NCBI GenBank assembly: GCA_002245135.1
Contig: NGBS01001160.1
Location: 620,001 to 684,000, forward strand
From: Proteromonas lacertae
Taxonomy: Eukaryota
DNA length: 64,000 nucleotides
Direction: 5' to 3'
The notes under the pieces were generated by a model. That model searched no databases. It had not been told where the DNA came from and was given only the letters and a program-made list of their open reading frames with translations. How positions within the stretch are numbered: the first letter of the stretch is position 1; every line of letters starts with the position of its first letter. Of this stretch, positions 13,871 through 54,312 are shown piece after piece. Made by a program: the position numbers and the translations under genes.

Positions 13871-13984
13871 TTTGGAAAGGCGGGATTTTTGATTTTTCGA
13901 GCCAAATTAGATTTTTTATTCAAATTATTTTAGTGTATTATGTTATGCTAATTAATAACTGATATAAAATAATAGTACAGAGTA

Positions 13985-14004
13985 CAGAGTTTTTCGTTTT
14001 GTTC
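13985..14004 (+). repeat. Tc1/IS630-type terminal inverted repeat, left boundary of the island
   Basis: TA|CAGAGTTTTTCGTTTTGTTC matches the reverse complement of 57754-57773 (TA|CAGGGTTTTTCGTTTTGTTC) at 19/20. A similar subterminal motif (GATCTTGTGTTTTGGA vs GATCCTTGAGTTTTGGA) lies inside both ends. Confidence 0.7.
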
Positions 14005-14674
14005 CTTTTCTTCTGAAGTTGCTTAATAGGTTATAAAAGAGTTGGTTATTTTTTGTGTGTGTATTTTTTGGGATCTTGTGTTTTGGATATCCACTCAAAA
14101 TTTGGACACCCTATTTCTAGAGGTGTTTCAACCTCAATAATTATATTTATCTTGCTATAATCATAAAACTAAGCGTTTCTGAACTTATCTTTGTATTTCG
14201 TTAACTTTCAATTCACACATTATGACATTATTTTTAAAATTTGAGCACCTCATGGTCCAGACTATAGAGCATAATAACTGCATCTTGGATCTCCAATTTT
14301 ATTTATATATTATGATTATTGAATGAGAGTGCTCAAAAAATAACAAGAATCGAAACAAACATAAGTTTGATCATTTTTTCAATTTTTATTTTTTGAGCAC
14401 CTCTCCTATAGGAAGTAAGGGCTCAATATAATAATATATTATGTGTATATGATGATTATTAAACTTATTTATTTAATTGATTAATAATTGATTTATAGCA
14501 TAATAAAATAATACACATATGTAAATATTTATACTTTTATCAAACATATTTGTAAATATTTCTAATTATAAACATATAAAACACTAACAGATGTATATTT
14601 ATTTGTTACTCAATGATAATTTAACCTTTGTCTTAAAAATCAAATCAAAAATCCATAATAACATCAATGTGTCT

Positions 14675-15547
14675 TTTTTCTCAGTTTGCATAGCTTCTAC
14701 TATAGCTAAATTTGCACCTTCTTCTACTACTTTACCTTCTTTACTAATACACTATAAAATTACCAGTTGTTGTGCGCTGTTGAGCGTTAAGAAAACTTTT
14801 TTCAATTCTAAAATGATAGTGTGTGGTTTGATGGCGAGTTATATGCAAATATAATCTTACTTTGTCATATAAGCTACATCTGCGATATATAGTTTTTTGA
14901 ACTTTATTTAAACATATTGAAAACAACTATAATTTTATTTTTAATTTTTTTGCTTCAATCACTACTAGAGTTAAAAATACATTAGTTTAAGCAATTAAAT
15001 CGCACATATTTAGATGTTAAGACACTTAAAAACGAAAAAATTAAAAATCTATTCAAGCCTCATTCAAGCCTGTTTTTTCAAAATAAATTTTAAGCAGGTA
15101 AATGCAATAAGTAGGTATTCTTTTTCTATTTAAAGCCTTTATCCCGATGTCTACTATTGTTATAAGCATTTAAAATAATATAAAAATAAAAAGTGTTTCC
15201 AGTACAGGAACCTAAACACGACTATACGATAATAGGCCAACGTAACTATTTTGGAAAACAAAGTGTTGATTAGTAATATTGAAGGGCCAGAGGTTACGTA
15301 TATAATATTAGAATTGAAAAAAGTCTTCTGAACGCTCAACGGAGCATTTAGCTCAACAGTGCACAACACCAGTCATTGATACAAGTTAAGAATTTGGAAT
15401 GATTTACTTCAGGTTTTGGAATCATGCTTTGATAATTTTCTTTCTAAAGCATTTCTTACATCTATAGTGAAGCTACCTCCATAACCTTCTACTAATCTTT
15501 TCATATATTGTACAGCTACTTCTTTAACTTTGTATAACTTTTACTTT
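14675..15547 (-). pseudogene. Fragment of propionyl-CoA carboxylase alpha chain (C-terminal/biotinyl domain), interrupted by a MITE
   Basis: Minus-strand pieces VAVQYMKRLVEGYGGSFTIDVRNALERKLSKH / IPKPEVNHSKFLTC / MTGNF / VKEGKVVEEGANLAIVEAMQ resemble the PCCA pattern SKFLxxPMPG...LAVVEAMKM; frameshifted. Confidence 0.65.
14768..15368. mobile_element. MITE family A, copy 1 (601 bp, TGTTGTGC...GCACAACA, 5-bp TSD CCAGT)
   Basis: Imperfect TIRs TGTTGTGCGCTGTTGAGCGTTAAGAAAACTTTTTTCAATTCTA; CCAGT at 14763-14767 and 15369-15373; removing the element restores the PCCA fragment. Confidence 0.9.
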
Positions 15548-15880
15548 TGTTGTGCGCCGTTTGTCATAGTTGGCCGTTTGTCTACCAGACACTTTTAAAA
15601 CAAACTAAATGTATATTCTTACTTGTCTTGATGAAAAATTGTTACTTTTATACTTACTTTGTTATATGACCTACCTCTGCGCTATACTTTTTTGTTAATA
15701 TAAATAGTTTGAATATTTGCGCCATTTGTTTTCTAGAAATTTTTGAAGCAAACTAAATGTATATTTAGCTAATATAGACTAAAATCTATTAGCTGAAATG
15801 ATTAGAATATAATAATTATTAAATCTTTATATATAAAAAAGAAATGTAAAAATAGGCTTGAGTGAGGCTTGATTCTATAT
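15548..15880. mobile_element. MITE family B, truncated copy (one arm plus core)
   Basis: Starts TGTTGTGCGCCGTTTGTCATAGTTGGCCGTTTGTCTACCAGACAC, near-identical to the arms at 19492, 52685 and 53908; ends after the AGGCTTGAGTGAGGCTTGA core. Confidence 0.85.
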
Positions 15881-15949
15881 AATAATCGAATTATTATTTC
15901 TTATGATATTATATAATAATCGAAAATCATATTTACTCTTTTAGTTAGG

Positions 15950-16030
15950 AAAAACACGTCACTTTCGTGATTTGTGTTGTTCCTGTGCTGTTCTTGTGCC
16001 GTTCCGTCCCTGTGCCTGCCGAACACAAGT
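15950..16030. mobile_element. Remnant terminus of a hAT element related to the one at 54858-57247
   Basis: GTCCCTGTGCCTGCCGAACACA resembles the end GTCCCTGTCCCCGCCGAACTCAG at 57225-57247. Confidence 0.45.
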
Positions 16031-16239
16031 TTAATGATTTTTATATTTAAAAAAGAAAAAAACTAAAATTAATAAAGTAAAAGAATTCTTTTACTATTCT
16101 TTTATTTAAGCAATATTAGTTTTTTTACTTTATTATTTATTTCAAAATTATATATTTAAATTGGATTATCTATTTTGGAAATCATATTTTGGAAATACTT
16201 GAAAGTATTTATGGTACTCAATACAGCAGAATAAATGAA

Positions 16240-16700
16240 ATGAAATAATAGCATAAGATAGTATTTGGCCTGAGTACTGTGAAAATCTGAATAACCAACT
16301 TCAACTGCTGGCAAAAGATAGTAATAAATACTATGTTAATGGCAATGTAATTGTTATAAAAGACAGAATATGTATATAATATCAATATTGATAATAATTT
16401 GATATTTTGTAGCTGTGGTTACAGGGAATTCACAGGAATTCCTTGTAGCCACATTCTGTGGATAAAGATTAAAATATCATAAACTGTATCGATAGAAAAC
16501 TTAATATGCAATGAAGCATATACTTCATATTTTAATTCTTCAAAAGATATAACAAAATATAATATCAAATTCAATGATACTACCCAGTTAATTGATGAAG
16601 ATTTAAATATTTCTACCTCAACAACCTCAGATGTTAATAGTGACACATTTAAAACTAGTGTAGACAATATACAACAGAAATATGCTTGTTGATATTTCAT
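16240..16700 (+). pseudogene. SWIM zinc-finger fragment, likely a MULE/Mutator transposase remnant
   Basis: 16408-16460 translates CSCGYREFTGIPCSHIL (CxCx8CxH SWIM motif); surrounding frames are broken. Confidence 0.6.
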
Positions 16701-16798
16701 GTGAAACTATTCGACTTGTATAGATTCTTTGCGACAAGTGATTTGAAGTGACCCCAAACCAATGATCTTTCCCAACGAAGTTCAAGGACTTTGATGAA

Positions 16799-17395
16799 GT
16801 GCACTGTTGAGCTAAATGCTCCGTTGAGCGTTCAGAAGACTTTTTTCAATTCTAATATTATATACGTAACCTCTGGCCCTTCAATATTACTAATCAACAC
16901 TTTGTTTTCCAAAATAGTTACGTTGGCCTATTATCGTATAGTCGTGTTTAGGTTCCTGTACTGGAAACACTTTTTATTTTTATATTATTTTAAATGCTTA
17001 TAACAATAGTAGACATCGGGATAAAGGCTTTAAATAGAAAAAGAATACCTACTTATTGCATTTACCTGCTTAAAATTTATTTTGAAAAAACAGGCTTGAA
17101 TGAGGCTTGAATAGATTTTTAATTTTTTCGTTTTTAAGTGTCTTAACATCTAAATATGTGCGATTTAATTGCTTAAACTAATGTATTTTTAACTCTAGTA
17201 GTGATTGAAGCAAAAAAATTAAAAATAAAATTATAGTTGTTTTCAATATGTTTAAATAAAGTTCAAAAAACTATATATCGCAGATGTAGCTTATATGACA
17301 AAGTAAGATTATATTTGCATATAACTCGCCATCAAACCACACACTATCATTTTAGAATTGAAAAAAGTTTTCTTAACGCTCAACAGCGCACAACA
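16799..17395. mobile_element. MITE family A, copy 2 (inverted relative to copy 1, missing 4 terminal bp)
   Basis: Reverse complement of 14768-15364. ORF translations across both copies are identical; 597 bp = 601-4, so no net indel. Confidence 0.9.
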
Positions 17396-19020
17396 CTTGG
17401 AACTTACTTGAAAGTCATCCTCAAGGAGTATATGCACTCAATGATCTTTCCCAATGAATGTTACGATGCTCTTGTCAAGATGATAACAGGGGAGGAGGAC
17501 TCCGAAGGAGTCTTCTTAAGGTACATTACTAGAGCAAGATCCATCGATAAGAACAACTACAATGAGATGGAGCAGGAGTACTTACTTACCCGTCACTATC
17601 AACTCAAGATTATCTCCGAGAGAATGGATCTCTTCATTAACAGCACCTGTAAGCTCCAAGGAAGTGATCTTCTAAGACCAGCCTTAAGAAACATCCAAGA
17701 ACGCCTTAAAGATATACAATACTTTGTCAAGGACTCCAAGATCAAGGAGGATAATACCAACTACTTCATTCTCACATCTCAATTCATCGATAAGGTCATC
17801 ACTTCCCTAAGACAACTTAGTAAAGCTGCTAATCACCTGGCTGTTGAACTAAAGGCTTATGAGAAGATGCTTAAACGCGATCATCCGATGCTCTTCAAGG
17901 ACAAGACAATCTCCATGGATGCATACCTTAAGGCAACTAACTACTTGATCAACTACACCAATGAAGTTTTTCAGATCCTGGAAATGGAGAAGCTGTATCT
18001 TCCTAAGAATCAAATGCTGAAGGTGTTTAAGAAACTCTATCAATCTCATGAGCATTACGTCCTTAAGGATTCTGCTTACTTCCTTAAGTGCAAGAGTCAA
18101 TCTTGGAGCTACGTGAAAGTAGAGAACCGACCTAGTACAAGACCAGACTCCGAGAAAGTACTTGTCTTTGACGAGGACAACTTACTTCATGCACCCACAG
18201 CTGTTACTTACACGCAAATGAAGTTAGTCAAGGAGATGATGGATAACGCATCCCAACACTACGTAGACTTTAACAAGGAGATGAATACATGGTTGAAATA
18301 TTAAGGTATTGACTTCCAGGATCTTCCAGTTACTTCATTGAGTCTCAACTTTAAGGATTTCGAGCAGGAGGAAGAAGACATCACTGGTAATGAGTCCATG
18401 GAGGAGGAGGATAATGATGATGATTATGGTAATATCGATGGTAAGCAGGAGGATTCATCTTCAGTAACAACTTAAATCCCGACATCTTTAGCAGTGATAA
18501 CGATACTGATAAAGAAGATATTGATAAGGCCGGTAAGGAAGTTAAATTAACTCCTGTCAATGCCAATGAAGAGAACGTTCCTAAGCTAGTCGATGAATTG
18601 CTAGAGCAACCACCTCCACTACCTCCTAAGCCTGTAATTACCAAGACTGATGATAAACCTATCATTACGAAGATGAAGAAGAAGACTTCTAAGCAATCTA
18701 CTGCTGGTAATCTTCCAAAGGAACCTTCAAAGGAACCATCAATGGAGCCTTCAAAGGAGCCTTCAACAATACCAGTAATCACCAGCTTCCTATCTTATTG
18801 AGAATAACCATGAGGATATCAAGGGCTCTGATGATGATGATGAACTTAACTTAGCTTCCACGGGACCAAAGTTACCTTCAATGATAAGTCCAGCTCCACA
18901 AGAGACTAACTCCTTGGAAGGCACCGAGATAAACAATACCTGGCAGAACACCAGCTGTTTACCAGACTTAGAAGAAGAACCGTATATGAACTCACCTATA
19001 CCTGACTTAGACATGCTTTA
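17396..19020 (+). pseudogene. Large unknown ORF (helical N-part, acidic/Pro-rich tail with KEPS repeats), 5' end cut by MITE A, broken by a stop and frameshifts
   Basis: ORF 17237-18304 minus its MITE-derived first 53 aa; coding-style sequence continues past TAA 18302-18304 (GIDFQDLPVTSL..EEEDNDDD) and into 18598-18801 (QPPPLPPKP..KEPSKEPSMEPSKEPS). Confidence 0.55.
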
Positions 19021-19491
19021 ACTTAAGGCTTCTCTTGTTATTGAATATCATTCTTGTTATTGTGGGTTTGTACAGATACTGCTACATAAATCTTATCGGA
19101 ACATCGTCTATTGATGATTGCCATCACACGATCGCCTATTGGCTGTTGAATGATGGTTATCATCATCAGTCAGTGTTATCCTTGCTTTTGAATCTCCAGA
19201 TAGAACAACTAACTACGATAACATTAAAGGACTTACTTTAATTTTCTTATATACACCTTGCAGATCCTTCTGAGTCTAGCAGCTTCATTGACTTTACCTT
19301 TACCTTTACGGGATGTTATCTTCCTGTTGATCACGTTCTTGATCCAGTACTTGACCTTCCATAAGATACTTCTTCCTCCTATGGTAATCAACTCTAAGTC
19401 ATCCTCAGAAGCAGAGCTAAAGCTTCTTGCACGATAACCATTCCTCCCTTCAGGCATCTCCAAGGAGTCCTTGAATTTACCTAGTACTTGT

Positions 19492-20124
19492 TGTTCTGCG
19501 CCATTTGTCATAGTTGGCCGTTTGTCTACCAGACACTTTTAAAGCAAAATAAATGTATATTCTTACTTGTCTTGATGAAAAATTGTTACTTTTATACTTA
19601 CTTTGTTATATGACCTACCTCTGCGCTATACTTATTTGTTAATATAAATAGTATGAATATTTGTGACGTTTGTTTTCTAGAAATTTTTGAAGCAAACTAA
19701 ATGTATATTTAGCTAATGTAGACTAAAATACATTAGCTGAAATGGTTAGAACAACTTAATGTTGATCATGTGACATATAAAATAAAAAAGAAAATATAGA
19801 ATCAAGCCTCACTCAAGCCTATTTTTTACGCTTTTTTATATATAAAGATTTAATAATTATTATATTCTAATCATTTCAGCTAATGTATATTAGTCTATAT
19901 TAGATAAATATGCATTTAGTTTGCTTCAAAAATTTCTAGAAAACAAATGGCGCAAATATTCAAACTATTTATATTAACAAAAAAGTATACTACAGAGGTA
20001 GGTCATATAACAAAGTAAGCATAAAAGTAACAATTTTTCATCAAGACAAGTAAGAATATTCATTTATTTTGCTTTAAAAGTGTCTGGTAAACAAATGGCC
20101 AACTATGACAAACGGCGCACAACA
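19492..20124. mobile_element. MITE family B, full copy (~633 bp, ~240-bp arms)
   Basis: TGTTCTGCGCCATTTGTCATAG...CTATGACAAACGGCGCACAACA with core TCAAGCCTCACTCAAGCCT; no TSD visible. Confidence 0.88.
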
Positions 20125-20919
20125 AGTGTTACTTTCTTCGTAGAGTAGATATTCCTGGGCAATGAGTAAGCTAGCAATCTCCTTTGATACATTGACATTG
20201 AACTTCTTTTGTTTATCCCGACAATTGCAATTAGGAATCAACTCAATAGCTTGCTTATCATCCTCATCTAACATACCCAGCTTCATGCACTTTAAAGTGA
20301 TATCCTTCACATCATCTATTCCTAAGGAGATGTTTAATGTGTTGTACTTATCTAGGTTCATCTTATAGGTAAAATCAAAGGTCCATTGCCTTATGAAGAT
20401 GCGGACGATTCTCTCTCCAGGATGTGCAAGGCCATAAATCTTCCTACGATCAGTCATGTGATTGTACTTCACTAGGAAGCAATTGTCCTTAAAGAGATAT
20501 TCACCTGATCCTCTAGGCACTTCCTCAGCTTCATGATCATCATTTCCGATAATCCTGAAGAGTCTCTTGAGTACCTCCCTATTACGATCCACGATCTTGA
20601 GCTTAGCGTAACATTGATGATACATTGGAAGAGTGATCTTCTTATCGTCTAGGTCAGGGATGAACTTAGCGATGCAATCTATGATCACTGGTTTCTCGGG
20701 AGTGATGGTAAGTCTTCGATAGCTATGTCCTTGCTGATGATACTCTGAGTAGATGCTAGCCTGACCGTATAGTTCTGATTCCTTTACAGTTGCCTCATAA
20801 GTATAGATTCTCATTACCATCTTTGAAAGCCCTTTCATCATGAACTCATCCTTACGATCGTCTTCATACTTCTCGGTGATCTCCTTGATAAGATTGAAGT
20901 AGCTTCTGTTCTTATTCAT
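20125..20919 (-). CDS. Unknown protein, paralog of 21030-21695; 3' end runs into MITE B
   Basis: Shares YFNLI..ITE.Y...RK.E, TITP..PVI.DC, KI.D.N...L..LF..IG...H.AE.V.RG, R.WTF.F, KY.TL....GI.DV.DIT..C with the neighbouring ORF. Confidence 0.7.
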
Positions 20920-21029
20920 CGATCAAGTATAGGAATAAGTTTATTGAACTGAATCAACCCCGAGATTACCATCCCTCTGAGAACTATCACTCCTGGAGGA
21001 TTGAATTCCATGATGGATGGATGAGATCA

Positions 21030-21695
21030 TTACTTGGTATTTCCTTTGAACTCCTTCCTTGCAGCTATGCATCTATCGGTGATGTCCTCCACATCGTTGA
21101 TACCAACAACGACTTCTAAGGTGTGGTACTTGGAGTAGTCCTTTGAGTCAATAAAGTTAAAGGTCCATCTAGGGAGTCTTAAACGAAAGATCCTCTTACC
21201 AAGACTTGCTAGGTGTTGAAACTTACTAATTGTTTTAGCAGCCCGTAGCTGACATTGCAACTGTACATAATCAGTTCCTCGGGAATTGCTTACTATTATC
21301 GTTCCTCTTAGAACATCCTCAGCATTGTGTTTGTTATCTCCGATCACTTCGAAGAGCTTCCTTAAGGTCTGATGATTGCTATCATGGATCTTCAGATAAA
21401 TCCTATTGTCACCTAAGTCCCGAACAACACTTCCAACACAGTCCACAATCACTGGGATCACCGGAGTGATGGTTACCTTCCTTGTTCTTGGAATGCCTAT
21501 ATCCATAAAGCTTTTTATCATAGCATCCCCGTAAGTGTCAGAGTCTTCTACTCGTATCTTATATGTGAAGAGCTTCTCAATCTTCTCCTGTCTGGTTGTC
21601 TTCTTCGGGAAGGTCAGTTCCTCCTTACGTTCCTGATCGTAGTTCTCGGTGACTTGACGGATCAGGTTGAAATAGTTCTCATTCATTGACTTCAT
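21030..21695 (-). CDS. Unknown protein (221 aa), paralog of 20125-20919
   Basis: Intact intronless ORF; aligns by eye with the adjacent ORF along its whole length. Confidence 0.7.
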   Translation of the reverse strand: MKSMNENYFNLIRQVTENYDQERKEELTFPKKTTRQEKIEKLFTYKIRVEDSDTYGDAMIKSFMDIGIPRTRKVTITPVIPVIVDCVGSVVRDLGDNRIYLKIHDSNHQTLRKLFEVIGDNKHNAEDVLRGTIIVSNSRGTDYVQLQCQLRAAKTISKFQHLASLGKRIFRLRLPRWTFNFIDSKDYSKYHTLEVVVGINDVEDITDRCIAARKEFKGNTK

Positions 21696-23715
21696 CGGCT
21701 GAGAATTATCGGATTGCCCTCAACTCACTTTGTTAATTAAGTCTTGACGTTTCCCAGAATTGACTTTTTACTCACTCCTGGTAATCACGCAATTCCCGGT
21801 CATCTCCATGAAGATAAGGATTCCTCCGAAGAATGAACTTAGAGCAAATGCAAAGTCCAATCAATGCAAGACCTTGTAAGATTCCTATGGTTCAAAGCGT
21901 TCTCGTACTACCTACGGCTAAGTGAATGCATCTCCAATCCCTTACTATGCGATAAGTCGATTACTAAGATAGAGGAGGACAATCATCTATCCATTAACGT
22001 ATTCAAGATGCTTCAGAAGCCAGATATTCACTTAGTCCCTTTACGTACTTCGAAGACACCTTCCAATGATTCCTATAAGCAGGTGAGCTTGCTTTACCTG
22101 GAAGAGAATTGTAAGCCTTCAACATCTCCTAGTACGGATACTCCCAATGATGAATCTCTTAGCGCTTCTACAATCATCCATTTCCATTTATCAACCCAAG
22201 ACAAGAGAAGTAATTGAATCACCATGAAAGTTAGAAGAAGAAGTCTGGCCTTTGACGTCTATTTATCATGAGTGTGATAATCCTACTCCATTGATCTATC
22301 AACTCCGACAACTCGTTAAGGATCTTACTTATTGAATCTAGTCTTTGTTGTGTGTAGTCAACGATATAGATATACCTTGTAGATACCTTAGTGCTGGTTA
22401 CCGTGGTGACTTCATTGTCTTGTTCATTACTAGGCCTTGAAGATTGTTGATATCTCCTTACTTCCTCTTGAGATAGTCTACTCCTTCCTACGTGTTCCTC
22501 CAATTCCTTCTTACAACCACGTCTCCTTACCGAGAAAATTGCTAGATAATTGATCTCCTTATGAAGTTGCTGATCCATCTTCTTGAAATCAACCTTACCG
22601 AGGATAGGTAAGTTGCTATTTACCTCCTCATCGTCGAAGTCTTCTAGGTATTAACTCATAATGGACTTTTCGATATAAGCAAGTTTCTCAACGATGGCAC
22701 TTAGGACATAGTACAATTTACTTAGCTGAATCTTGTTAGTCTTCACCTTCCCTAGAACTTCAAATGATCTCCTTGTCTTCTCAGTTGAGAACATCCCATC
22801 ACAGTTATTGAACTCTCCGAGGACACCTCCCTTATCTAGCAATGATCGGAGTACTGCCTCTCACAACCTTGGTACTTGAGATAATCCTTTACCCTCTGGT
22901 TCCTTTGAAGCAACCTCTTATCGGTAGCGTTCTTGAAGTATTGCATTCACGGGGGTGTTCAGAAATTGTTTACTGCCGAGATAGTTGAACTATTCCGATG
23001 CCTCCTTCTATAGATCATGCTGTGTCCTGCATTAAGAACATTTACTTACTATCCTTCTACGTAGTGCTAGTATCAATGGTCCTTGCCTTTATCTATATGA
23101 AGCTTCAGAGCATACAACACCAGGCAAGATTATTTCATCATGCTGACCTTGATGGATTCAACAATCGTTTATTAAGAGTTTACCCAGCTGATCTCCTGCT
23201 CCTTGTAGGTAACAATGTTGTTCCCGTGAATGAGGTTTTCGACGATGATTTCCTAGATGATGAAACTTACTTACAATGGAGGATGCATTTGCCTTTAAGC
23301 TAGCTAGCTAAATCTCCTGCTTATCGTTGTGGTTGATGGTACCTTTGCTTTGTTGGGATGATCGAAAAACATCATCTTATCGGGGATAGGTACAATGGAT
23401 AAGCACCTAGCCTGGTTCTGAACAATGTGAAGGTTCAGTAACAGATTACCCAGTGAATGGTAAAGAGCTAAAGGCTTCTTCCATAAAGTACCATTCATGA
23501 TCGTGATGGAGTGGTAGGGTAGTTTGGAACTGACTGCTTGCTGATCCTTAAAGATGTTATCCTCCATACTCTTCAGAATCGAATTAGTTTACCTAGACAA
23601 TTAATGTGGATGATGAGACTTACCTACTGAAGACTCTTGAGATTGCTGCTATCTCTTTTCATTTTCCTTAAGAATTAAAGAATTGAGTGAAGCCTCCCGA
23701 AGTCACCATTGCATG

Positions 23716-24128
23716 CTTGTTAACAATTGTAAAGTCCCAGTTCCACGATTGAGTTCTCCACTGAGTTCTCCATTGAGTTCCAAGATTGCCCTGTTGATTA
23801 CCCTAGCTTTTCAATGGCCTTATAAATTGACTGATTAATAGAAGAACCATCAAGACCTTCCCAGATACATCCAGCCGTGTATGACTGCGTCAGGGAATCT
23901 CCCATGATGGGAGATTCCTTCCTTTCCAACACGGCTGTTCTTCTCGGGAAGGTCGTGGATGAACTTATCTAGGAGAGTTATAAGGATGATAAAACATACC
24001 TTCAGAAGCCTTCCGAGATTGCTAATCATTATCTTCAAGGGACCTTGAGAAATCCACAACTAGCTAGAACCTCCTGGAGTTGCATTTGGTAACTTGTTAA
24101 CAATTGTAAAGTCCCGGTTCCACGATTG
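23716..24128 (+). repeat. 36-bp direct repeat pair (23716-23751, 24093-24128) plus short GAGTTCTCCA tandem units
   Basis: CTTGTTAACAATTGTAAAGTCCC(A/G)GTTCCACGATTG occurs twice with one mismatch. Confidence 0.85.
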
Positions 24129-24209
24129 GTTTCCACGGTTCAATTAAAAGCCCTTACAAGGTCACCAGTGTAGCAAGGAGAGTCAAGAGCGTGATTAGAA
24201 TCATCACTA

Positions 24210-24381
24210 CGAGGTAACCAACACTTGTAGATAGCTTCCAGAAGTCCCCGTAGCAGATCGTCTCATAGATAGGTATAGAAATAGCTTAGAGGAGTTCCCG
24301 TAGGGAAGTAGACCCCGTTGAGAAGTAGACCCTGTTGGGAGGAATCCCGTAGGTACCTTACGTAAATAGGACCCTGGTACA
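24210..24381 (+). repeat. Terminal sequence of the virus-like element (copy 1)
   Basis: CGAGGTAACCAACACTTGTAGATAGCTTCCA...GGAGGAATCCCGTAGGTACCTTACGTAAATAGGACCCTGGTACA; homologous to 37993-38111; contains GAAGTAGACCC subterminal repeats. Confidence 0.8.
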
Positions 24382-24400
24382 AAAGTTATTCCTATTCTTC

Positions 24401-25129: not shown

Positions 25130-25306
25130 ATTATAGTAAATAATTCGATTTTTTAAGAATATCACAAAGTAAATATAAACAATTTAGTACAAACCCTAAA
25201 TTTCTTTTCTTTTACTCTTCTTTCTTACTATGTAAAACACAATAGTAAGAGAGTTAATTATCTGTCGTTTGTCTACCAGACACTTTTAAAACATACTAAA
25301 TTCAAA

Positions 25307-25808
25307 TTGTTACTTCACAAAAGGGAATGTTGGCTGATGCAAAGTTCTTATCCTAATTATTCCAATTTGGTGAGTTTAAGATAGATTTAATCAAAGAAGA
25401 AACAATTTACACCAGCTGTAGCTATAAATGCATCAAAAGATAGTAAAATCAAAATTAGAAACATTGAGATTAGCAAAAACAAAATTAGATCAAGCTGAAT
25501 CATGATTAGCTGAATGAAAAAAAGTACTAGATAAATTACTAGCTGATTTCCAAGATAAAATCAACTAGAAAGGTATGAATTGGATTCGAGCTTTAGAAGC
25601 TAATAATATGCCTGATTATGGTTCTACTACATTATCTCATCCTAAATTCAAAGATCAATTGGAATATGCTATGGAAGAAGGTTAAACTTTGATTATTACT
25701 GGTTTAGAAATCAATAAATCATTTATGTTATATATATTCACCAGATTACCAAATCCATTATTTACACCAGAATTACAGGTAAGAACAACATTAGTTGATT
25801 TCACTGTA
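25307..25808 (+). pseudogene. Collapsed fragments of an axonemal dynein heavy chain (stalk/AAA5 region)
   Basis: Pieces [104 protein letters not shown]. Preceded by a MITE B arm fragment at 25266-25301. Confidence 0.75.
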
Positions 25809-26118
25809 TAATGTATTGATCGTATGCTCGTAAGTTCCTGGTATTGCAGTTCATGTTCTCCATGGGTAACTTGATGTAGAAAGTCTTAAAGTAGACATCA
25901 AAGTTCTTCTGTTCTCTTAAGGCCTTGTTGAGTCCCTTTAGTTTAATCCCGACCAACTGATTAATCGTATAAAGCTTACCGTTCTTGTTTTCTTCACACT
26001 TCAATAAATTCAACTTACTAATGTCTATCATCCTCATGAACTGCTTATACTCCATAATATCTCGATAAGTGTCTTCATTCTGGCAGTTGCAAAGCAAGGA
26101 GTAGGCATTATTCATCAA
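25801..26118 (-). pseudogene. Unknown ORF fragment with the virus-like codon style
   Basis: 105-aa ORF with composition like 17396-24381, abutting the dynein fragment. Confidence 0.35.
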
Positions 26119-27442
26119 AGTATTATATGAAATACAGGAATGATTTACAATCAGTAAGATTTATTGCAATGATATATGTATTTTATTTTCATAAGAAGAG
26201 AAAATATTGTAAAGGAGGATTTATAAAAAAGGATGAAAAAAGAATATACTGCAATTGCAACCAATGTCAAATTTAGTTTTATTAGTAATCTATATATCTT
26301 CTTTATCAAATCCTTTTATATCATATAAAAGATCCAAAGAAATATTATCATGTTTATATTCTTATGCAAATTATTATTACTATTGCATTTCAGTGAATTA
26401 TTTAGAACAATCTAGTTCACTTAATTATACACCTTTTATGCATTATTATTCAATGAATATTTATTTGAAGTAAGATTTTGTGAGTTAATATTTAGAACAT
26501 ATCTAAATATAATTCATTATAATTATATAATAAATTATTAATTACTTTTTGATGAAATTATCATTATTATGTGGATATTTAGTAGTTATGAATGTACTAT
26601 TGGTAATTACCCTAGTTACAAGATGATATTACCATAATCTACATCATTTCTAATGCTATTTCAGGAATGGAAGAGTAATTCAATATTTTCAATAAAAACA
26701 TTTCAATATTTCTAAAGTATACTTCACAAGTTATAAACAAAAATCATATTCAAAAAAATATATTATTGGTTTTGCAACTAATTTCAAATTTTATAGTAAT
26801 TGTTTATTTTATAGTAATTGGAAATTCACATTTTAAGACGATGGAATACTATTATTATTGTGGATAATCATTACTAGATTTTCATCCTAATATATTTTAT
26901 TCAAATAATAAACATAATAAAGATTTGTATTGTATATTAATAAAGAGAAATGTAAGTTATACAGAAATGGTTTTGAAGTATATGGTGAAGTAATCATTTA
27001 ACAGATTATTAATTCAATGAAAAACATTATATATAAACTGATGAAATCATATTTTATATATAACAATAATCGTTAAATTGTTAATCAAAAATATAAAATA
27101 GTATTAATTATGATGACTTTATATAGAAGATATTATGTATTTTCTACATTATTAAATTTCATTCACTACTAGTGATTAAAATACATTAAATGAGATGAAA
27201 TCCTATCTTCCTGAAGAATGTTGAATGATATCAAAGAAAATTGAAGCAATTATTCGACTTTGTAAAGATGTTCAATACAATACTTAATTCAGCAATAGAT
27301 GTCTTCTTCTCAGAAAAGCTAATCATCACTTTGAGATTCTGTAATACATATATGGGACTGTCGCTCAGTATCACAGAGTTCTAACGAATTGGAAATGTAA
27401 TTATAAATCTAACAACATTTCTAATTTTCGATATTTAAAAAT

Positions 27443-30042
27443 CAGGGTTGTATAAATAGGTAACCTATAGGTTATAGGTAAAACCTATAATCTAGCTTTG
27501 ACCGACGGTCGGTCAAGCCTCGAGCATTATTTTGTTAAAATCTATTTTAATTACATACTGAGTAACATTTGCTTAATACCAACTATCATACTATATAAAA
27601 AATTATTCCTGCTTCCTGTTTTACTTTGATTACCATAGTTAGAATAAGATTGGTTGAAATTGTATAAATAACTATTCTGATATATTAAAATTCATCTACA
27701 AACTACTCAATAGTGATATTTAACATATTTATACACTTGTTTTTTTTATGATTTATTTATGTTGATTACTATCTATAAAAAACAAATATTAATGTAATTA
27801 TAATAATAAATCTCTATTTCTGGATATTAATAATTTCTCTTCCATATGTTCTGATGAAATATTACATTTTGTGTAACTACTTATTCTCCCAATCTCGCTA
27901 AATATTCTCTCAGACTCGCAAGATGTACTTTGACAACATAAATATTTTCTGGCTAATTCAAATGTTTTAGGAAATATGGGTTTAAGGTGTAACCATACTG
28001 ATGACAAGCTCTCACCAGTGCTAAAATGTTCTGAATAGTCTATATAAGAATCTATTTCTTCTCTCATAATTTTTCTTCTTTTGTGCGATGAAGGAATATT
28101 TAAATACTTATCTAATTCGTTATTTTCATCTACTTCCATCAAATTCTCTTCTTCATCTTCACTCATTATTCTATTATGTTGATGTAAACTGTGAAGAGCA
28201 TTTTTTGCATCTATAAATTCATCTACAGTAAACCCTACTAATGACTCTTTAATAAATGTTTTAACACGTGGATCGAGAATGCAGCACATTAAAGGAATTC
28301 TAGTTTCGGAGTAAATAATTCTTAATTTCTTATTTACACTCTCTTTTATTCTATCAGCATATTCCTTGAAATCTTTTGTGTAAATACTTGTATTCATTTC
28401 ATATAATACTCTTTTTACGTTTAATACAGCCATACCTAATGTTATATTTCTTTTCTCTAAAAGTAGAGTAAGATTATAAAACGGTTTTAAAATATTTAAT
28501 ATATCATTCAAATATTTATAATCATTTGAAGAAGATTTTGGAATGTATTGAAGCAATGCATCTATTTTAGGCTTTGATATATTAATAATACCTATTCTTT
28601 TGTCTTTGTTATATTTCTCCATTCTTATATGGTATTCTTTATTCTGATCTTCCACGTATTGAGTCAATTTATTTTTGTTTTCATTTATTTTGTTAAGTAA
28701 TATATACATGCTATTCCATCGAGTGATGGTTATAGTACCTACTGCAATATCTAGTTTATTTCTATTTGCTACAGTTCTAAGTTGCTTGCTAAGATTAACA
28801 AATGTCTCAATTATTTCTGACACTTCATCCCCTATAACCAAACATGAATTAATAGATAATTGCAACGTATGTAAGAAGCATCTGATGTTGTCAATTTCTA
28901 GGTTTTTAACGCACTTTAGCACATTTGGTGCATTGTCTGTTGCTATGGAGATAATATTAAATTTGTAATGATCTCTGACAGTTTCTATTAAATCTGAAAG
29001 AGTTGAACTATATTCGTCTGCTACTTCAATTACTCCTATTGTATTTGTAAATTGTTTCATGTAATTATCAATGTATACACAACTAATTCCAATATATTCC
29101 TTACAGCTTTGACTTTTGAACCCGTCGAGTGTTAAAGAAACGTATTGTCCTCTCAATTGCCTCTTTAATTCTTCCTAATGTATGTAATATTAAACAAATA
29201 TACTCTTACTTTCTCAGTTTCTGAAAATAAATAATCATTATAAACCTCTCTTCGAGGTACAGTATATCCTAGTTTTAAGCAAAACCTTCTAAATTCTGGT
29301 GAGTCTAATATCGTGGTACTGACTGCATTGAAGGTTATGAATTTAAACAGATCTTGGTTGAGAGAATCTGAATTGACTTTGGCTTGTACTTCTTCATAAT
29401 TATGTACATTAACCATATGTAATTTCACAGCCTTCCCGTTCCTAACATTGCACCTATATTTTTTGTTGCAAAGGGAGCATATGCAGTAATCAGTATCTTT
29501 GATTTTTAACATGTTTTTCCAAAACATTTTGGAGTAGTTAAAATTTAACTTCTCTAACATACCGCTATTGTATAAATCCTCAACTTCTTTCGATGCGAAA
29601 GGTGGTAATGTAATATCCCTATGGTTTTATATATTATAAAGTCTTATAAATATTGAGTAATTATACATCTAAATGATCTAAATCTTAAAAAATAAAGATT
29701 TACTTAGTCAAACCATCAAGCTTGATGTTTTTTTCTTTTATTTTTTTTATTCTATAATTATCTTAATATTATGTTAATAATATGTTATTGTGAGTCATCA
29801 TTGAGAAATAGATCAAAATAATAGTAATATAAAAAGTGCATCGACCGACGGTCAAATTTGATATTTGAAAGATGATGTATAAAACATTAATTTTGTATAT
29901 ATGGTTAGATAATATGCTTCTTAACTCATGTTCAATAGGAGGTCAACTAATAGTTAGTATAAGGAAGGTAAAGGTCAAGCTAAAGATATAGGTTTTGACC
30001 TATAGGTAAACCTATATTTTTTGACCGAAAAATACAACACTG
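27443..30042 (-). mobile_element. hAT DNA transposon, apparently autonomous, 8-bp TSD TTAAAAAT
   Basis: Ends CAGGGTTGTAT / ATACAACACTG; TTAAAAAT on both sides; subterminal GACCGACGGTC and ACCTATAGGT motifs. Confidence 0.93.
27798..29620 (-). CDS. hAT transposase (BED finger, DDE, dimerisation domain), intron-containing
   Basis: CSLC...HMVNVH; LTLDG; ATDNAPN; RCFLHTLQL; TRWNS; LDPR; STSCESERIFS. A 29-nt GT-AG intron joins TEKVR|EELKRQLRG. Exact start uncertain. Confidence 0.9.
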
Positions 30043-36854: not shown

Positions 36855-37904
36855 CAGGGTTGTATTTATCGGTTACCGACGGAGATAGGTCAAAACCTAT
36901 AGGTTTTGCCTTGACCGTCGGTCGGTCAAGCCTTACAAGCCGAATATTATAAAATCTATTTTAATTCATTATATACTAATTTTCCCTTCATAAAAACTAT
37001 CTTATAATATATTTTAATACTTGATTCATATATTTTCAATTCAATTAAATAATTTTTAACTTTTTATAAAGATTTACAATTTAATACTCAACAATAATTA
37101 GGTATTTTATATAATTATGTTCTTATTTATTTCTACTAATCATCAGTTTCATTTGTAATCTATCACATGATTAATTTGATTTGGATAAGTTACTTATTTG
37201 TCCAGTATGTTTAAACTGTTCTTGGCAAGTATGTATACCCTAGGAAACTTGGACTTTAATGATAGCCAGATATTTACAATGGTTTCAGAGGTGCTGTAAT
37301 GAATATCATATTGCAAATATTCTTGTACTTCATTTGGCATAATTAATCTCTTTCTTTTTACTGAAAATGCATTTATCAAGGCTTTTTATCTTTAACATAT
37401 TATACCAAAAGGTTTTGTAAAAGTTAAAATTAAGATGTTCAAGCATATTTGCCTCTTTTAAGGCAATAACTTCACGAGCCGCTCCAATTGGTAAAACTAT
37501 ACTCCTAGAATATATAATGATAGATTATATTAGATACATTTATGATAATTATAAGAAATGATTAATGTCAAGCTAAAAGTTTGCCATTTTTTCTTTCAAA
37601 TTTTTATAATCATTCTATACTTTATATTACATATATAACACAATAGAATAACTCATTGGTAAGGTTAGATTCAATTATGAAGAAAGAAAAAAGCGCATCG
37701 ACCGACCGACGGTTAATTCGGTATTTTATAGAATGATATATAGAGCTTGAATTCAATATGTACAGTTAGATAATATTATTAATATCACATGTTTAGGAGG
37801 AGGTCAGCTAATAGTTACTACAGCCTGGTGTCGGTCAACATTTGTTTATTGACCTACGACCGATCGGTTTTCTCAGTCGGTCATGACCGATTTATACAAC
37901 CCTG
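36855..37904 (-). mobile_element. Non-autonomous hAT (internally deleted relative of 27443-30042), 8-bp TSD GGCTATAG
   Basis: CAGGGTTGTAT / ATACAACCCTG ends; GGCTATAG at 36847-36854 and 37905-37912; transposase remnant 37194-37379 (WLSLKSKFPRVYILAK). Confidence 0.92.
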
Positions 37905-37992
37905 GGCTATAGATATTTTTAACAAATATAATATTGTGTATATCATTCTTACCCATACTCCGAAAGAGATCACTGCTTCTGCATTACCATAC

Positions 37993-38299
37993 CGAGCTAA
38001 CCAACACTTGTAAATAGCTTCCAGTAGTCCATGTAGGAAATCATCTCGAAAGGAAGTTGACCCCGTAGGAGGAATCCCGTAGGAACCTTACGTAAATAGG
38101 ACTATGGGACAAGTGTCAGAGTCCTAACGAGTTTTCTATAAGTCCGTCCCCTTCTAGATCCAGAGTTGACCTTTACGGGAGCTTCATCGATTGCATAGAC
38201 GCAGCCCCTGTAAAAGTTAACTCTGAATCTAGAAAGGGACGAACCCCTAGAAAACTCGTTAGGACTCTGTGACAATGTCCCAGGGTCCCATTTATATAC
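37993..38299. repeat. Element terminus (copy 2) + ~160-bp foldback hairpin (38114-38274) + inverted terminus
   Basis: ...TAAATAGGACTATGGGACA AG TGTCAGAGTCCTAACGAGTTTTCTA...TAGAAAACTCGTTAGGACTCTGTGACA A TGTCCCAGGGTCCCATTTA; arms pair to a ~3-nt loop near 38193. Confidence 0.88.
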
Positions 38300-38520
38300 T
38301 ATATATAGTAGTCCTTACCTACTTTTACAAAGATTCTACGCTTAGAAGCAGCAGTTGAAGCCGATCTTCTTGACATGTTAAGTGAATGGTGAGGTAGCAC
38401 TCTATATATGCTATAAAAAAATATATGTACGATGATTTCGATATAAAAAGTATAATATTGTATAACAAATATAGTTATGTTTAACAAATAAAATATTGTG
38501 AATAGTTGTTATATTTAATA

Positions 38521-41500
38521 ATGATTCATAATACTTATATACAACAATTCAGAGGCATTTCTATATTATTCATTATATTATTTCATTGTTCACAATCAAA
38601 TAACGGTTATTTAAGCGTAACAATATTTTTGCAGATTATTTTTAACGAATTATAGTTAATTTTCCACAACTATATATTACAATTATTTTAGTATTATTAT
38701 TTACAACTAATAAAAGCTATAATAGAATTAAAAATTTGTATATAGAAATTATTTTAGTCAATATGATAATCCATCCTATGTTTTACATTTTTGGTATATA
38801 TCTCTTGAGCAGCAAATATATGTAATATATCCAATTCTCCTATCTTGTTATTTATATTACAGGAATATACTCTATATTGCTTGCATAGTAAGTATAGCAA
38901 CATTTTCAACTAACTTGTCAAATAACGTTTCGTTTTCTTATTATATTAATATTTGTAAGATTTATGAATATATTCTTGGAATGTTATGAAATTCAAATCT
39001 TATATTACATAAATATTTAATAATCTTAATTCAATCAGTTGATATACATATTTATATAATATATAAATTTATAATATTAAATATAACTACATGGTATATA
39101 TTAAGAATGATCCATTTCAATCAACTTAACATATACTTTGTTTTAAACAACTATGTTTTATATATAATAGGAAATATATCATATGAAATGTATCTTATTC
39201 GTTATCCTCTTATCCAATTACTTAGTGTAAGATATCTTATTATACTATTAGTATATATTTTCAATTATATATCGCCTATAATTATCATTATATATCACTA
39301 ATAGAGAATCATTTTTTAATAAAAAATATAGAAATGTCATTATTGCGCCAAAAATTAATCCAATGAGAGAATATTTAATTGTATATTATTATTAGGTAAT
39401 TCACATTTGGAGCAATGGTTTCCTTCAATTATACGAATAGCTAAAGGAAAAAAGAATGGAATAATTTACGAAAATTTTCATGCAAATACAGTATTTTTCA
39501 ATAACAATTAAATCCTTCTCACTTAACTTGGCTTTTTATAATATTTGTAATTGAAATAGGGTTTTGAATATGTTGAATTTTTTTTAGAGATGTGTGATAA
39601 TGAAAAATTGTTTTGGGACTATAATATAATAATTAGTGTTATTTCCATAATATCAACAATTTTAGGATATAGTGACATAGAAGAAGTGATTAACATACAT
39701 TTTATAACATATAACGCCAAAATATTCATAATCATGATAGAATTAAGAAAGTTAGTGAAATTTTAAACTATCACACCATTATATTAGATGTCCTCACCGT
39801 TCATTACTTTTCTAAAATTTGTATGCACCACTTTCTTTACCGATTTGAAACATATGCTCGGGGTGATAGTCTTGAATGAATCTGCTATTTTTTTGATTAT
39901 TTCTTCTCTGTTTCAGTAAGAGCACGTCTCACTACGACGTTTCCATATCCCAAATATCATTTCAATTGGATTCAGGTGTGGACTATATGGAGTATTGAAT
40001 AATAATTCATTTCCTTATTCTTAATTAATTTTTCTGTATCAGGGGAATGGTAAATTATGCAATTGTCCATGAATATTAGGCATTTGCCTAATTCTTTGAT
40101 ATCATCAAGCAAGTATTGAATATATGTTCTAAAAATAATTGTTGAATTCTCTCCATATACTACTTGCGAAAAATGCATCTTAATATCACGCATACTTGCA
40201 ATCACTGTTATATGAGTTGCTGAGTTTGCCATATGTACCACTGGAGTAGTACCAATTTCAGCCCTTGCTCTACCTGTTACCAACCCCATCATCCAATGTG
40301 ACTCATCCACAAAGATGGGGCGATAACCTGATTCTAGATATGCCAAAAATTTTCGAACTACTATTTTTCTCTCTTCCTTTAGATTATTTATCTCACAAAC
40401 TCTTGATCCTCTGCTTACGAACCTCTTTAATGTAATTGTTGGCAATCCATCTCTCTTCATTTACATTGTTAATGTTCTTTGAACTGTACTTATAGACACT
40501 ACTTTGTTTGTTTTAGCTTTAATAGCTTCTTGAAGTTGTCTTAACGTTGCTCGATTGTTTCTTTTGATCTCTTCTAACAAGATCTCTCCATCACTTTTCC
40601 CCAGAAGTCTCATTTTGCCTTTGCGTACATTCACTTTATCTGAGTCTCTCTGGCTTTATACCAGTTATGTCTGAATATTTCAGTAACGAGTAATTCTGAC
40701 CTTCTACCGCATATACTTTCTTGAGGGTATCTATCTGCTGTTGGCTTATTTTCTGATATAGCCTTTTACTTGATGGAGGTTCAGAAGATGATTCTACTAC
40801 ATTATCATCATTATCCAACATAATTTCTCTTAATTCTACATAATATGAAACTGGACCATTATACACAATTTCATCATCAACCACTTGCTGAACTGCAGGC
40901 GCAGAATTAATAAAATCCTCTCTACAGTATTCATTTTTTATATAAGAATGAACATAAGTTTTTTTATTAATGATAGGTAGCTGAAAAGGAGTTGGCGCGA
41001 AAATCAATAATGATTAAGGCTTGAAGCTCGGCATTATTGAATGACAAAGAAAACTTCTTATGTGAAAATATTCGTTACAAAACTTTGGCTTGGCAAAGTT
41101 GAGTGAGAAGGATTTAATTGTTATTGAAAAATACTGTATAATAGAAAATATGGAATTATATTTATATATCAAAAAATATGTGCAAATAGTCAATAGTTAT
41201 TCTACTATAATAATATCATCTTTTTTTATGTCTCATTCATGGATTAAAAATCTTACAAATTTTAAACATCCATTTAAAAAATATATATATTATCTAATTA
41301 TACATCTCATATATTTATAATAAATGATATTCCTTTATTGCATATCAATCCTTTAAATTGTATTTACTCTGTAACAGAAAAAAGAGAATGTTTTGCAATA
41401 GATGGAATTAATTCATCTATTACTTTAATACCATTTATATATAATCAAAAAGTAAAATATTGCAATATGAATAAATATATTTGCACAAAGAACAAGATTC

Positions 41501-52684: not shown

Positions 52685-53294
52685 TGTTGTGCGCCGTTTG
52701 TCATAGTTGGCCATTTGTCTACCACATACTTTTATAACAAACTAAATGTATATTCTCGCTATTCTTGATGAAAAATTGTTACTTTTATACTTACTTTGTT
52801 ATATGACCTACCTCTGCAGTAATACATTTTTGTTATTATAAATGGTTTGAATATTTGCGCCATTTGTTTTCTAGAAATTTTTGAAGCAAACTAAATTCAT
52901 ATTTAGCTAATATAGACTAACTTAATGTTGATCATAATACATTTAAAATGAAAAAAGAAAATATTGAATCAAGCCTCACTCAAGCCTACTTTTACATTTC
53001 TTTTTTTATATAGAAAGATTTAATAAATATTATATTCTAATCATTTCATCTAATATATTTTAATCTATATTAGCTAAATATACATTTAGCTTGCTTCAAA
53101 AATTTCTAGAAAACAAACGGCGTAAATATTCAAACTATTTATATTAACAAAAAAGTATACTGCATAGGTAGGTCATATAACAAAGTAAGTATAAAAGTAA
53201 CAATTTTTCATCAAGACAAGTAAGAATATACATTTAGTTTGTTTTAAAAGTATGTGGTAGACAAATGGCCAACTATGACAAATGGCGCACAACA
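52685..53294. mobile_element. MITE family B, full copy (610 bp)
   Basis: TGTTGTGCGCCGTTTGTCATAG...CTATGACAAATGGCGCACAACA, long arms, TCAAGCCTCACTCAAGCCT core; no TSD visible. Confidence 0.9.
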
Positions 53295-53299
53295 TTTTT

Positions 53300-53907
53300 T
53301 TATAAAATGAGCAATTTCTATAGTTGTTGTTATATTTAAACCATCCACTAAGGGTTTATATTTTGAAGCTTTCTCTTTACATATTGGTACAAATTCATCA
53401 GCAATTTTAGGTATATCCCATCCATTGACATATTTCTTGGTTTATACCAAGTATTGAATTTGATTTGTGGTGGTGTATAATAATGATCCCAAAAATTGAA
53501 CATAAATACATCAGATTCTTCTCCTAATGAAGTTGAACCTCTCCATATTGTTTCTAAGGTTTGACTTTGTCTACGACGTTCTTTATCTAAATAATCAATT
53601 CTGTTTGTTCCAAATGCATCAAATCCCATTTCTGACATTAATCTTGCGTTTTGACTGGAATGACCGAAAGGATCAATATGCCAACCTACTCTTGGTCTTA
53701 TTCCAAATTGTTCTTTAATATATTTTGTTCCTAAAGCCATTTGATGAATCATTGCTTCATAATTAGTACAAGCTTCATCATGCATAACCCATCCACCTAA
53801 ATTCAACTCTAGGTTCACTCCACCATCTTTGAAAAAAACTCTGTTCTACATAAGTAAATTTATGCTTTGGATTTTATTCATTGATTAAAGTATTGAATTA
53901 ATAATAT
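53300..53907 (-). pseudogene. GH38 alpha-mannosidase N-terminal fragment
   Basis: KFTYVEQSFFQRWW, GGWVMHDEAC, PRVGWHIDPFGHS, MGFD, RIDY; internal deletion; flanked by MITEs on both sides. Confidence 0.85.
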
Positions 53908-54312
53908 TGTTGTGCGCCGTTTGTTATAGTAGGCCGTTTGTCTACCAGACACTTTTAAAACAAACTAAATACATATTCTTACTTGTCTTAATGAAATATT
54001 GTTACTTTTATACTTACTTTGTTATATGACCTATGTCTGCAATATACTATTTTGATAACTTTAGTATTGAATATATGAAACGCAATTATTTCATTAACTA
54101 CAAGAGACTAAAACAGATTAATTGAATTGATTAAAATTAATGAACATTTACTTATACATGTCTAAAAAAGAAATGTAAAATGTAGGCTTGAGTGAGGCTT
54201 GAATTTATTTTTATTTTTTGGTTTTTAAGAGTCTTCAAATTATAACTTCAACGTAATCTATCTAAAACCCTTTTATCTCCCAACGGCGCAAATCTCCCAA
54301 CGGCTTACAACA
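53908..54312. mobile_element. MITE with a B-type left arm and an A-like right end
   Basis: TGTTGTGCGCCGTTTGTTATAG...AGGCTTGAGTGAGGCTTGA...CTCCCAACGGCGCAAATCTCCCAACGGCTTACAACA. Confidence 0.75.

Follow-up and report, generated by a model that had tools for sequence, protein, structure and literature searches.

Genomic setting

All counts given below refer to a single 64-kb window, that is, the whole stretch of DNA that was analysed, within which copies of the element described here are known from three loci. The window consists of AT-rich eukaryotic DNA, with a GC content mostly of 21–29%. Values of 21–23% GC are published for tortoise Blastocystis genomes (PMC12129017), though a kinship based on this would be a guess. 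For one host protein, the best relative matches at 94% and the next at 34–45%. The left part of the window holds a long, split gene of the PI3/PI4-kinase family, and the window also carries remains of hAT, Tc1-like and SWIM-finger transposons. A MITE-like family of about 600 bp with TGTTGTGCGC-type ends, some members of which are almost whole foldbacks, recurs along the window:

14768–15371, 16792–17395, 15547–15880, 19491–20125, 52685–53294 and 53907–54208: MITE-like family of about 600 bp

A hAT element with its transposase and a shorter derivative lie at 27443–30042 and 36855–37903, each flanked by an 8-bp TSD. They adjoin two of the loci discussed below and are independent, later arrivals. 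At 39486–41139 there is a Tc1/IS630-like element, the TIRs of which measure 47 bp and the DDE_3 transposase of which is frameshifted. A SWIM zinc-finger remnant of a Mutator-like transposase (16380–16480) lies at the left limit of the GC-rich segment described in the next section, and a second small GC-richer relic (25818–26102) with an ORFan (25804–26160, minus strand) adjoins a dynein AAA_9 pseudogene fragment. The range 24400–52000 is a dense, apparently intronless cluster of glycosyltransferases and methyltransferases (22% GC; GT92, three Galactosyl_T, TylF, two FkbM, DUF229 and DUF1647 domains), beginning 20 bp past the segment end at 24381. This cluster could be a transferred glycosylation island.

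A decayed GC-rich segment

To the left of the cluster lies a segment of distinct composition (40–41% GC, as opposed to 22–25% in the host DNA), with the following features:

16700–24381, no strand assigned: decayed GC-rich segment with ORFan genes on both strands (left limit approximate)
17396–18304, plus strand: ORFan with an all-helical prediction of low confidence; a MITE-like insert interrupts its 5′ part
20130–21695, minus strand: two tandem paralogous ORFans, 39% identical

The segment is broken, with about 6.4 kb surviving, and is split by two of the MITE-like inserts (16792–17395 and 19491–20125). Codon use and the tandem pair with its 39% identity indicate that the ORFs are real. The possibility of an altered genetic code was rejected, since the standard code leaves the intact ORFs open and frameshifts also occur in the segment. 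The stretches 23666–23761 and 24043–24136 share a 46-bp core (93% identity) that lies within the segment and nowhere else in the window; it is possibly a promoter or origin motif.

Searches against Pfam, PHROG and NCBIfam gave no match in the segment, for intact ORFs and for six-frame readings with the letter X at stops. Genes for an integrase, pPolB, protelomerase or capsid, linked copies of which the original prediction proposed to look for, were not detected in the window readings searched, and intact ORFs and six-frame readings yielded no integrase, polymerase, protelomerase, ATPase or capsid. Likewise, no Walker A or pPolB motif was present in the six frames of the window, and no rve integrase in the intact ORFs or the six frames of 15880–16791, 18200–19490, 21690–24400, 25130–27440 and 37904–39480. 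A protein search with two of the three intact segment ORFs returned nothing at E ≤ 0.001 among candidates of near length; scans for related loci and tblastn against phages were also negative. Comparison of the segment ORFs with the Atlas gave a best value of 0.87 (to DUF3829), below the usable level, and no hit; a sequence search of the PDB gave one match (E 0.066). Structure models of the ORFans are of low confidence, with pLDDT 50 for the paralog pair and 48 for the helical ORFan, and a fold search with the paralog-pair model only (pLDDT 50) found nothing at E ≤ 0.001 (best Z 4.0, rmsd 4.4, 83 aligned).

A gene-dense, two-stranded and compositionally foreign segment is typical of an endogenous DNA virus, according to the parts consulted of a published account (PMC10120064), and the GC-rich segment resembles one. 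The original prediction called it virus-like; as no hallmark gene was found and the ORFs have no detectable relatives, a viral nature is something that we infer from this resemblance. An inverted copy of the segment end is missing from 13900–14767, from 15880–16791 and from elsewhere in the window, and the left end of the segment may have been lost.

An insert with nested palindromes

A composition model trained on the GC-rich segment delimits 37944–38402 as one insert of 459 bp with a GC content of 38%, against 18–20% in its flanks. The insert consists of a left part, X (149 bp), a palindrome (202 bp) and a right part, Y (108 bp), so element-like DNA runs about 108 bp beyond the right terminus, to 38402. 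The features of the insert and of its two related loci are as follows:

37944–38092, plus strand: X, a further copy of the GC-rich segment's subterminal end; clear homology from 37993; CCCGTAG repeats at 38062 and 38076
38093–38111, plus strand: unit 1, outer-type, 19 bp, ends in ACA
38114–38130, minus strand: unit 2, inner-type, inverted, 2 nt shorter; forms with unit 1 a nested palindrome of about 38 bp
38131–38255, no strand assigned: central foldback; 3-nt loop at 38192–38194; mismatches densest near the loop (10 of 15 columns)
38256–38274, plus strand: unit 3, inner-type; agrees with the outer unit at 11 of 13 core bases
38276–38294, minus strand: unit 4, outer-type, inverted; forms with unit 3 a 39-bp nested palindrome around one base
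38295–38402, no strand assigned: Y, element-like composition, 108 bp; does not mirror X and is not repeated elsewhere in the window
24363–24381, plus strand: outer-type unit with which the GC-rich segment ends on the right, breaking off at the nested-palindrome axis
27349–27390, no strand assigned: third copy, a lone decayed palindrome of about 40 bp; outer unit 13/19 and inner unit 17/19 identical to the right-hand units

The stretch 38093–38294 is a single imperfect palindrome of 202 bp in which 80 of 100 aligned columns match, and its DNA fold has a z of −14 (0/200 shuffles as good). The original prediction placed here a foldback at 38114–38274 with arms matching at about 80–85% around a loop of about 3 nt, and a terminus recurring from the end of the GC-rich segment. 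Both are borne out: the arms 38117–38191 and 38195–38269 match at 83% around a 3-nt loop, and GGACCCTGGTACA at 24369–24381, GGACTATGGGACA at 38099–38111 and the inverted copy at 38276–38288 are all present. Its coordinates for the features of the junction are all correct.

What is new is that 38093–38294 contains the terminus four times, as a 19-bp unit that alternates in orientation, so that each outer part is itself a palindrome of about 40 bp. A search with the unit gives four matches (0.17 expected), falling into an outer and an inner type with 11 of 13 core bases in common. The order along the palindrome is outer-forward, inner-reverse, 125-bp foldback, inner-forward and outer-reverse; the 13-base terminus motif also stands inside the foldback, at 38262–38274, one base from the inverted terminus. 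Because its own ends are the same 19-bp unit, the foldback is not a separate add-on. The small palindromes centre on ACA, one or two bases, and TGT. They are whole at 38093–38130, 38256–38294 and 27349–27387, and one half is present at 24381; an outer-type unit is paired with an inner-type unit at all three junctions in the window. Five of the seven aligned units end in ACA, the two of the third copy ending in TCA and ATA. The left nested palindrome is equalled by 2/200 shuffles and the right one by 8/200; taken individually, the nested hairpins are modest (2, 8 and 24/200 shuffles) and were noticed after the fact. These observations support the view that the ACA boundary is structurally special, being the axis of a nested palindrome of about 40 bp.

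The left flank matches the neighbourhood of the 24381 end at 47/55 positions (37993–38047 versus 24210–24264) and at 41/45 positions (38068–38112 versus 24338–24382). Of the eight matches to CCCGTWG in the window, six lie in X and 24247–24352, where 0.7 would be expected in the whole window. To judge from these repeats, X and the neighbourhood of the 24381 end look like a subterminal region. Homology between X and Y was tested at the DNA and protein level and is unsupported, the X and Y peptides being unrelated. Near the left limit of Y, shortly after the right unit, there is a perfect 14-bp AT-rich palindrome (38300–38313). The copies of X differ at 12/100 positions in ungapped blocks and the arms of the palindrome at 20/100 columns; the two divergences are comparable in size, which is what an old relic should show.

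Beyond the outermost units the mirror symmetry is lost. Outside 38093–38294, the mirror of X gives 14/40 matches without gaps, and in eight gapped tests beyond the palindrome 321–909 of 1000 shuffles were as good. The locus had been predicted to be a head-to-head junction; with X unmirrored on the right, 37944–38402 is not the junction of a head-to-head dimer. TSDs, which were to be tabulated for the copies, are absent around the insert, where we found only AT-rich repeats at 50–70 bp from the right limit.

Partial copies at 24381 and 27349–27390

The third copy aligns without gaps across the boundary between terminus and hairpin (35/47; best of 200 shuffles 32), as the original prediction had it. 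The fixed spacing kept at 27349–27390 upholds its further claim that the terminus and the start of the foldback travel together. This copy pairs with the right side of the palindrome read backwards (38299–38253). Its flanks extend significantly into neither neighbour (492 and 57/1000 shuffles), and further tests of extension, including one across the following hAT element, were equally negative (826, 955 and 452/1000 shuffles). A second arm for the third copy was tested and is unsupported.

At 24381 the element was said to stop at ACA without the hairpin. The foldback is indeed absent there, but identity continues for one more base, to 24382; extension past that point is insignificant (257/1000 shuffles), and the composition model stops at 24380. 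Four sites group the left side of the palindrome with the 24381 end and the right side with the third copy, whereas the other groupings are found at 1 and 0 sites. Three of the four sites lie in AT-rich sequence just outside the palindrome. Such patterns would fit two end types.

Origin of the insert

We propose that ends of an unclassified mobile or viral element with palindromic tips became fused and are preserved as a fossil at 37944–38402, a reading to which we assign a probability of roughly 45%. Two tips of about 40 bp are likely to face each other across the 125-bp foldback. The small palindrome would be the putative tip or cut site of the element, the free form of which would have a hairpin end, or undergo cutting, at the ACA-N-TGT axis. 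An end opened exactly there would resemble that at 24381, and one opened off the axis and then copied would retain the small palindrome in full, as at 27349. End-joining with a self-complementary 161-bp piece caught between the non-identical ends X and Y would yield the locus at 37944–38402, which would then have decayed. This reading draws support from the four alternating units, the segment end at the axis, the third copy consisting of two units alone, the subterminal repeats in X and 24247–24352, and the nature of Y, which is element-like yet unlike X. The site patterns, the arm divergence and the terminal palindromes described for virophages and PLVs (see below) also speak for it. Against it stand the lack of a hallmark gene, of ORF relatives, of a TSD and of an inverted partner end in the window, as well as a codon-position bias among the copies (see below) that a non-coding tip does not predict. 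Long palindromes are fragile sites, as stated in the parts consulted of PMC7999016, so the trimmed copies could result from breakage instead of processing.

It is unlikely that a MITE-like, internally deleted element inserted in the GC-rich relic between X and Y, with 24381 and 27349 as its broken descendants. Like foldback MITEs, 38093–38294 is short and non-coding and has long inverted arms, here of about 100 bp with nothing between them; the window is rich in such elements, X and Y are unrelated, and TA stands at both outer limits of the palindrome. However, this TA is part of the palindrome itself and self-complementary, and hence provides no independent evidence of a TSD. Unlike a foldback MITE, the structure is joined to the segment end in a fixed manner, the same joint of X and unit being present at 24381, and the third copy is devoid of a second arm. 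The 64-kb window has a single whole copy of it, but several copies of the other MITE family.

The arms could also be two diverged copies of a protein-coding stretch that fused in inverted orientation, making the hairpin a by-product. Differences among four copies are distributed 17/9/5 over the codon-position classes (p = 0.027), 17 being synonymous in the best frame as against 12.6 (24/2000); the inner stem alone gives 107/5000 for the best of six frames. Between X and the 24381 copy, 6 of 9 differences are synonymous (31/4000) in one minus-strand frame that follows the spacing of the right arm. However, the count is 2 of 9 in the other two frames of X, and the unshifted left-arm frame gives 2895/4000. 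With several tests and few sites, the p-values for the codon bias (about 0.01–0.03) are soft. Furthermore, the copies have stops in common, the nested units are left unexplained, and the peptides have no family or relative, those of X and Y being unrelated to each other as noted above. A search of a library of 1.84 billion entries, with a 76-residue reading of the left arm plus X as query, returned five repeat artefacts, namely summed weak matches in tandem-repeat proteins. We consider a coding origin rather improbable on balance, although the third-position bias hints at it and is unexplained if the insert represents fused tips.

A remnant of an IS630/Tc1 transposase was considered separately and rejected. 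Pfam gave no match (DDE_3 catalytic domain) at E ≤ 10, and a profile of 56 bacterial IS630 proteins scored −1.3 bits (50/1000 shuffles), compared to 32.6 bits for the Tc1-like gene of the window.

According to the original prediction, the free form is extended by a hairpin, namely the 161-bp foldback, which a retroviral-type integrase trims at CA-3′, and the locus is a head-to-head junction. All four units at 38093–38294 and the 24381 end finish in ACA, the 24381 end is free of the foldback, and the unit occurs together with the start of the foldback at 27349–27390, as would be expected. Removal of the hairpin at integration, however, has one trimmed end (24381) to set against one locus with the whole foldback and one with about 20 bp of it, so that two of three loci retain foldback sequence. 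Given also that the foldback ends are the same unit and not a separate add-on, that X is unmirrored on the right, and that neither an integrase nor a TSD was detected in the window, this account appears very doubtful.

That a broken relic underwent a single fold-back repair, or that the palindrome is an artefact of assembly, is highly improbable. Short inverted repeats by a break can seed palindromes (PMC7999016, in the parts consulted), and the folding of 38093–38294 is no better than that obtained by random decay of a perfect palindrome, its best-strand energy being equalled in 176/400 simulations. Against either possibility, the unit junction recurs at 27349–27390. A fold-back artefact in a read is expected to give near-identical arms, whereas these differ at one column in five. 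Finally, selection for a hairpin RNA on the minus strand can practically be set aside: 9 of 12 transitions give G-U pairs on that strand and the fold energy is −136 versus −117 kcal/mol, but the G-U bias (9 vs 3) has a binomial p of 0.15, the strand gap is reached in 36/400 simulations, the best-strand energy is as common under random decay as stated above, and Rfam gives no match at E ≤ 1 within 14000–42000.

Relation to known elements

Junctions of hairpin-ended linear DNA are known from poxvirus and asfarvirus concatemers, N15 telRL and parvovirus/AAV ITR junctions. The insert shares with them nested palindromes and an imperfect palindrome with mismatches mostly near the loop; its hairpin, bordered on either side by a short unit and then by unlike flanks, is reminiscent of a head-to-tail ITR junction. 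Dimer junctions are mirrored far beyond the hairpin, whereas 37944–38402 is not, and in contrast to hairpin-ended replicons no gene for a Rep, resolvase or protelomerase was detected in the window. Elements with TG...CA ends and retroviral-type integrases include Polintons/adintoviruses and Ginger. The ends described here finish in ACA-3′ like theirs, but an integrase, pPolB or TSD was not found in the window. In the parts consulted of a description of adintoviruses (PMC8502044), no long fold-back extension is described.

By analogy, the closest described system appears to be the terminal palindromes of endogenous virophages (subtypes 1, 2, 5 and 6) and of PLV subtype 4 in Halocafeteria seosinensis, for which the parts consulted of the source propose, but do not demonstrate, a role in hairpin priming (10.64898/2026.07.28.741278). 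As far as these parts go, both systems have gene-dense inserts of distinct composition in a eukaryote, tipped by a palindrome a few tens of bases long, and decayed fragments invaded by transposons. In Halocafeteria, palindromes (52 nt in subtype 5) are located in TIRs beside TSDs, and complete elements carry capsid and integrase genes. In the present window, the palindrome of about 40 bp has unequal halves and occurs twice, once on each side of a 125-bp foldback; neither a capsid or integrase nor a TSD or second end was detected. The element may work like the Halocafeteria virophages and PLVs, whose palindromes were compared by description only.

Exact DNA patterns found no match in viral_contigs or metagenome_contigs, and blastn of 37944–38402 gave none in phages or plasmids; a plasmid match at E 0.5 was dropped as chance. 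In the literature covered, which leaves out most subscription journals, we found no description of this element.

Significance

The structure is real and well-defined. It probably represents what is left of a junction in an element with palindromic tips, and would vary a type described only recently. A more specific reading takes the segment for what remains of an integrating linear DNA virus or plasmid from a family not yet described, the genes of which are unlike those in the searched collections and whose 202-bp palindromic ends would be cut at the ACA-N-TGT axis, the 161-bp foldback being dropped at integration; we regard this as quite improbable. The value of the finding is limited by its nature as a decayed relic, known from three loci and devoid of an assignable gene. 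The attached genes match nothing in the searched collections, hence the parent element may represent a new family. Opening and integration of hairpin-tipped ends of protist viruses has the status of a proposed mechanism in the parts consulted of the published account (10.64898/2026.07.28.741278). If our reading is true, the three loci would be three outcomes of one tip, namely a cut at the axis, a small palindrome left behind and two tips fused, and a candidate cut site open to testing would thereby be named.
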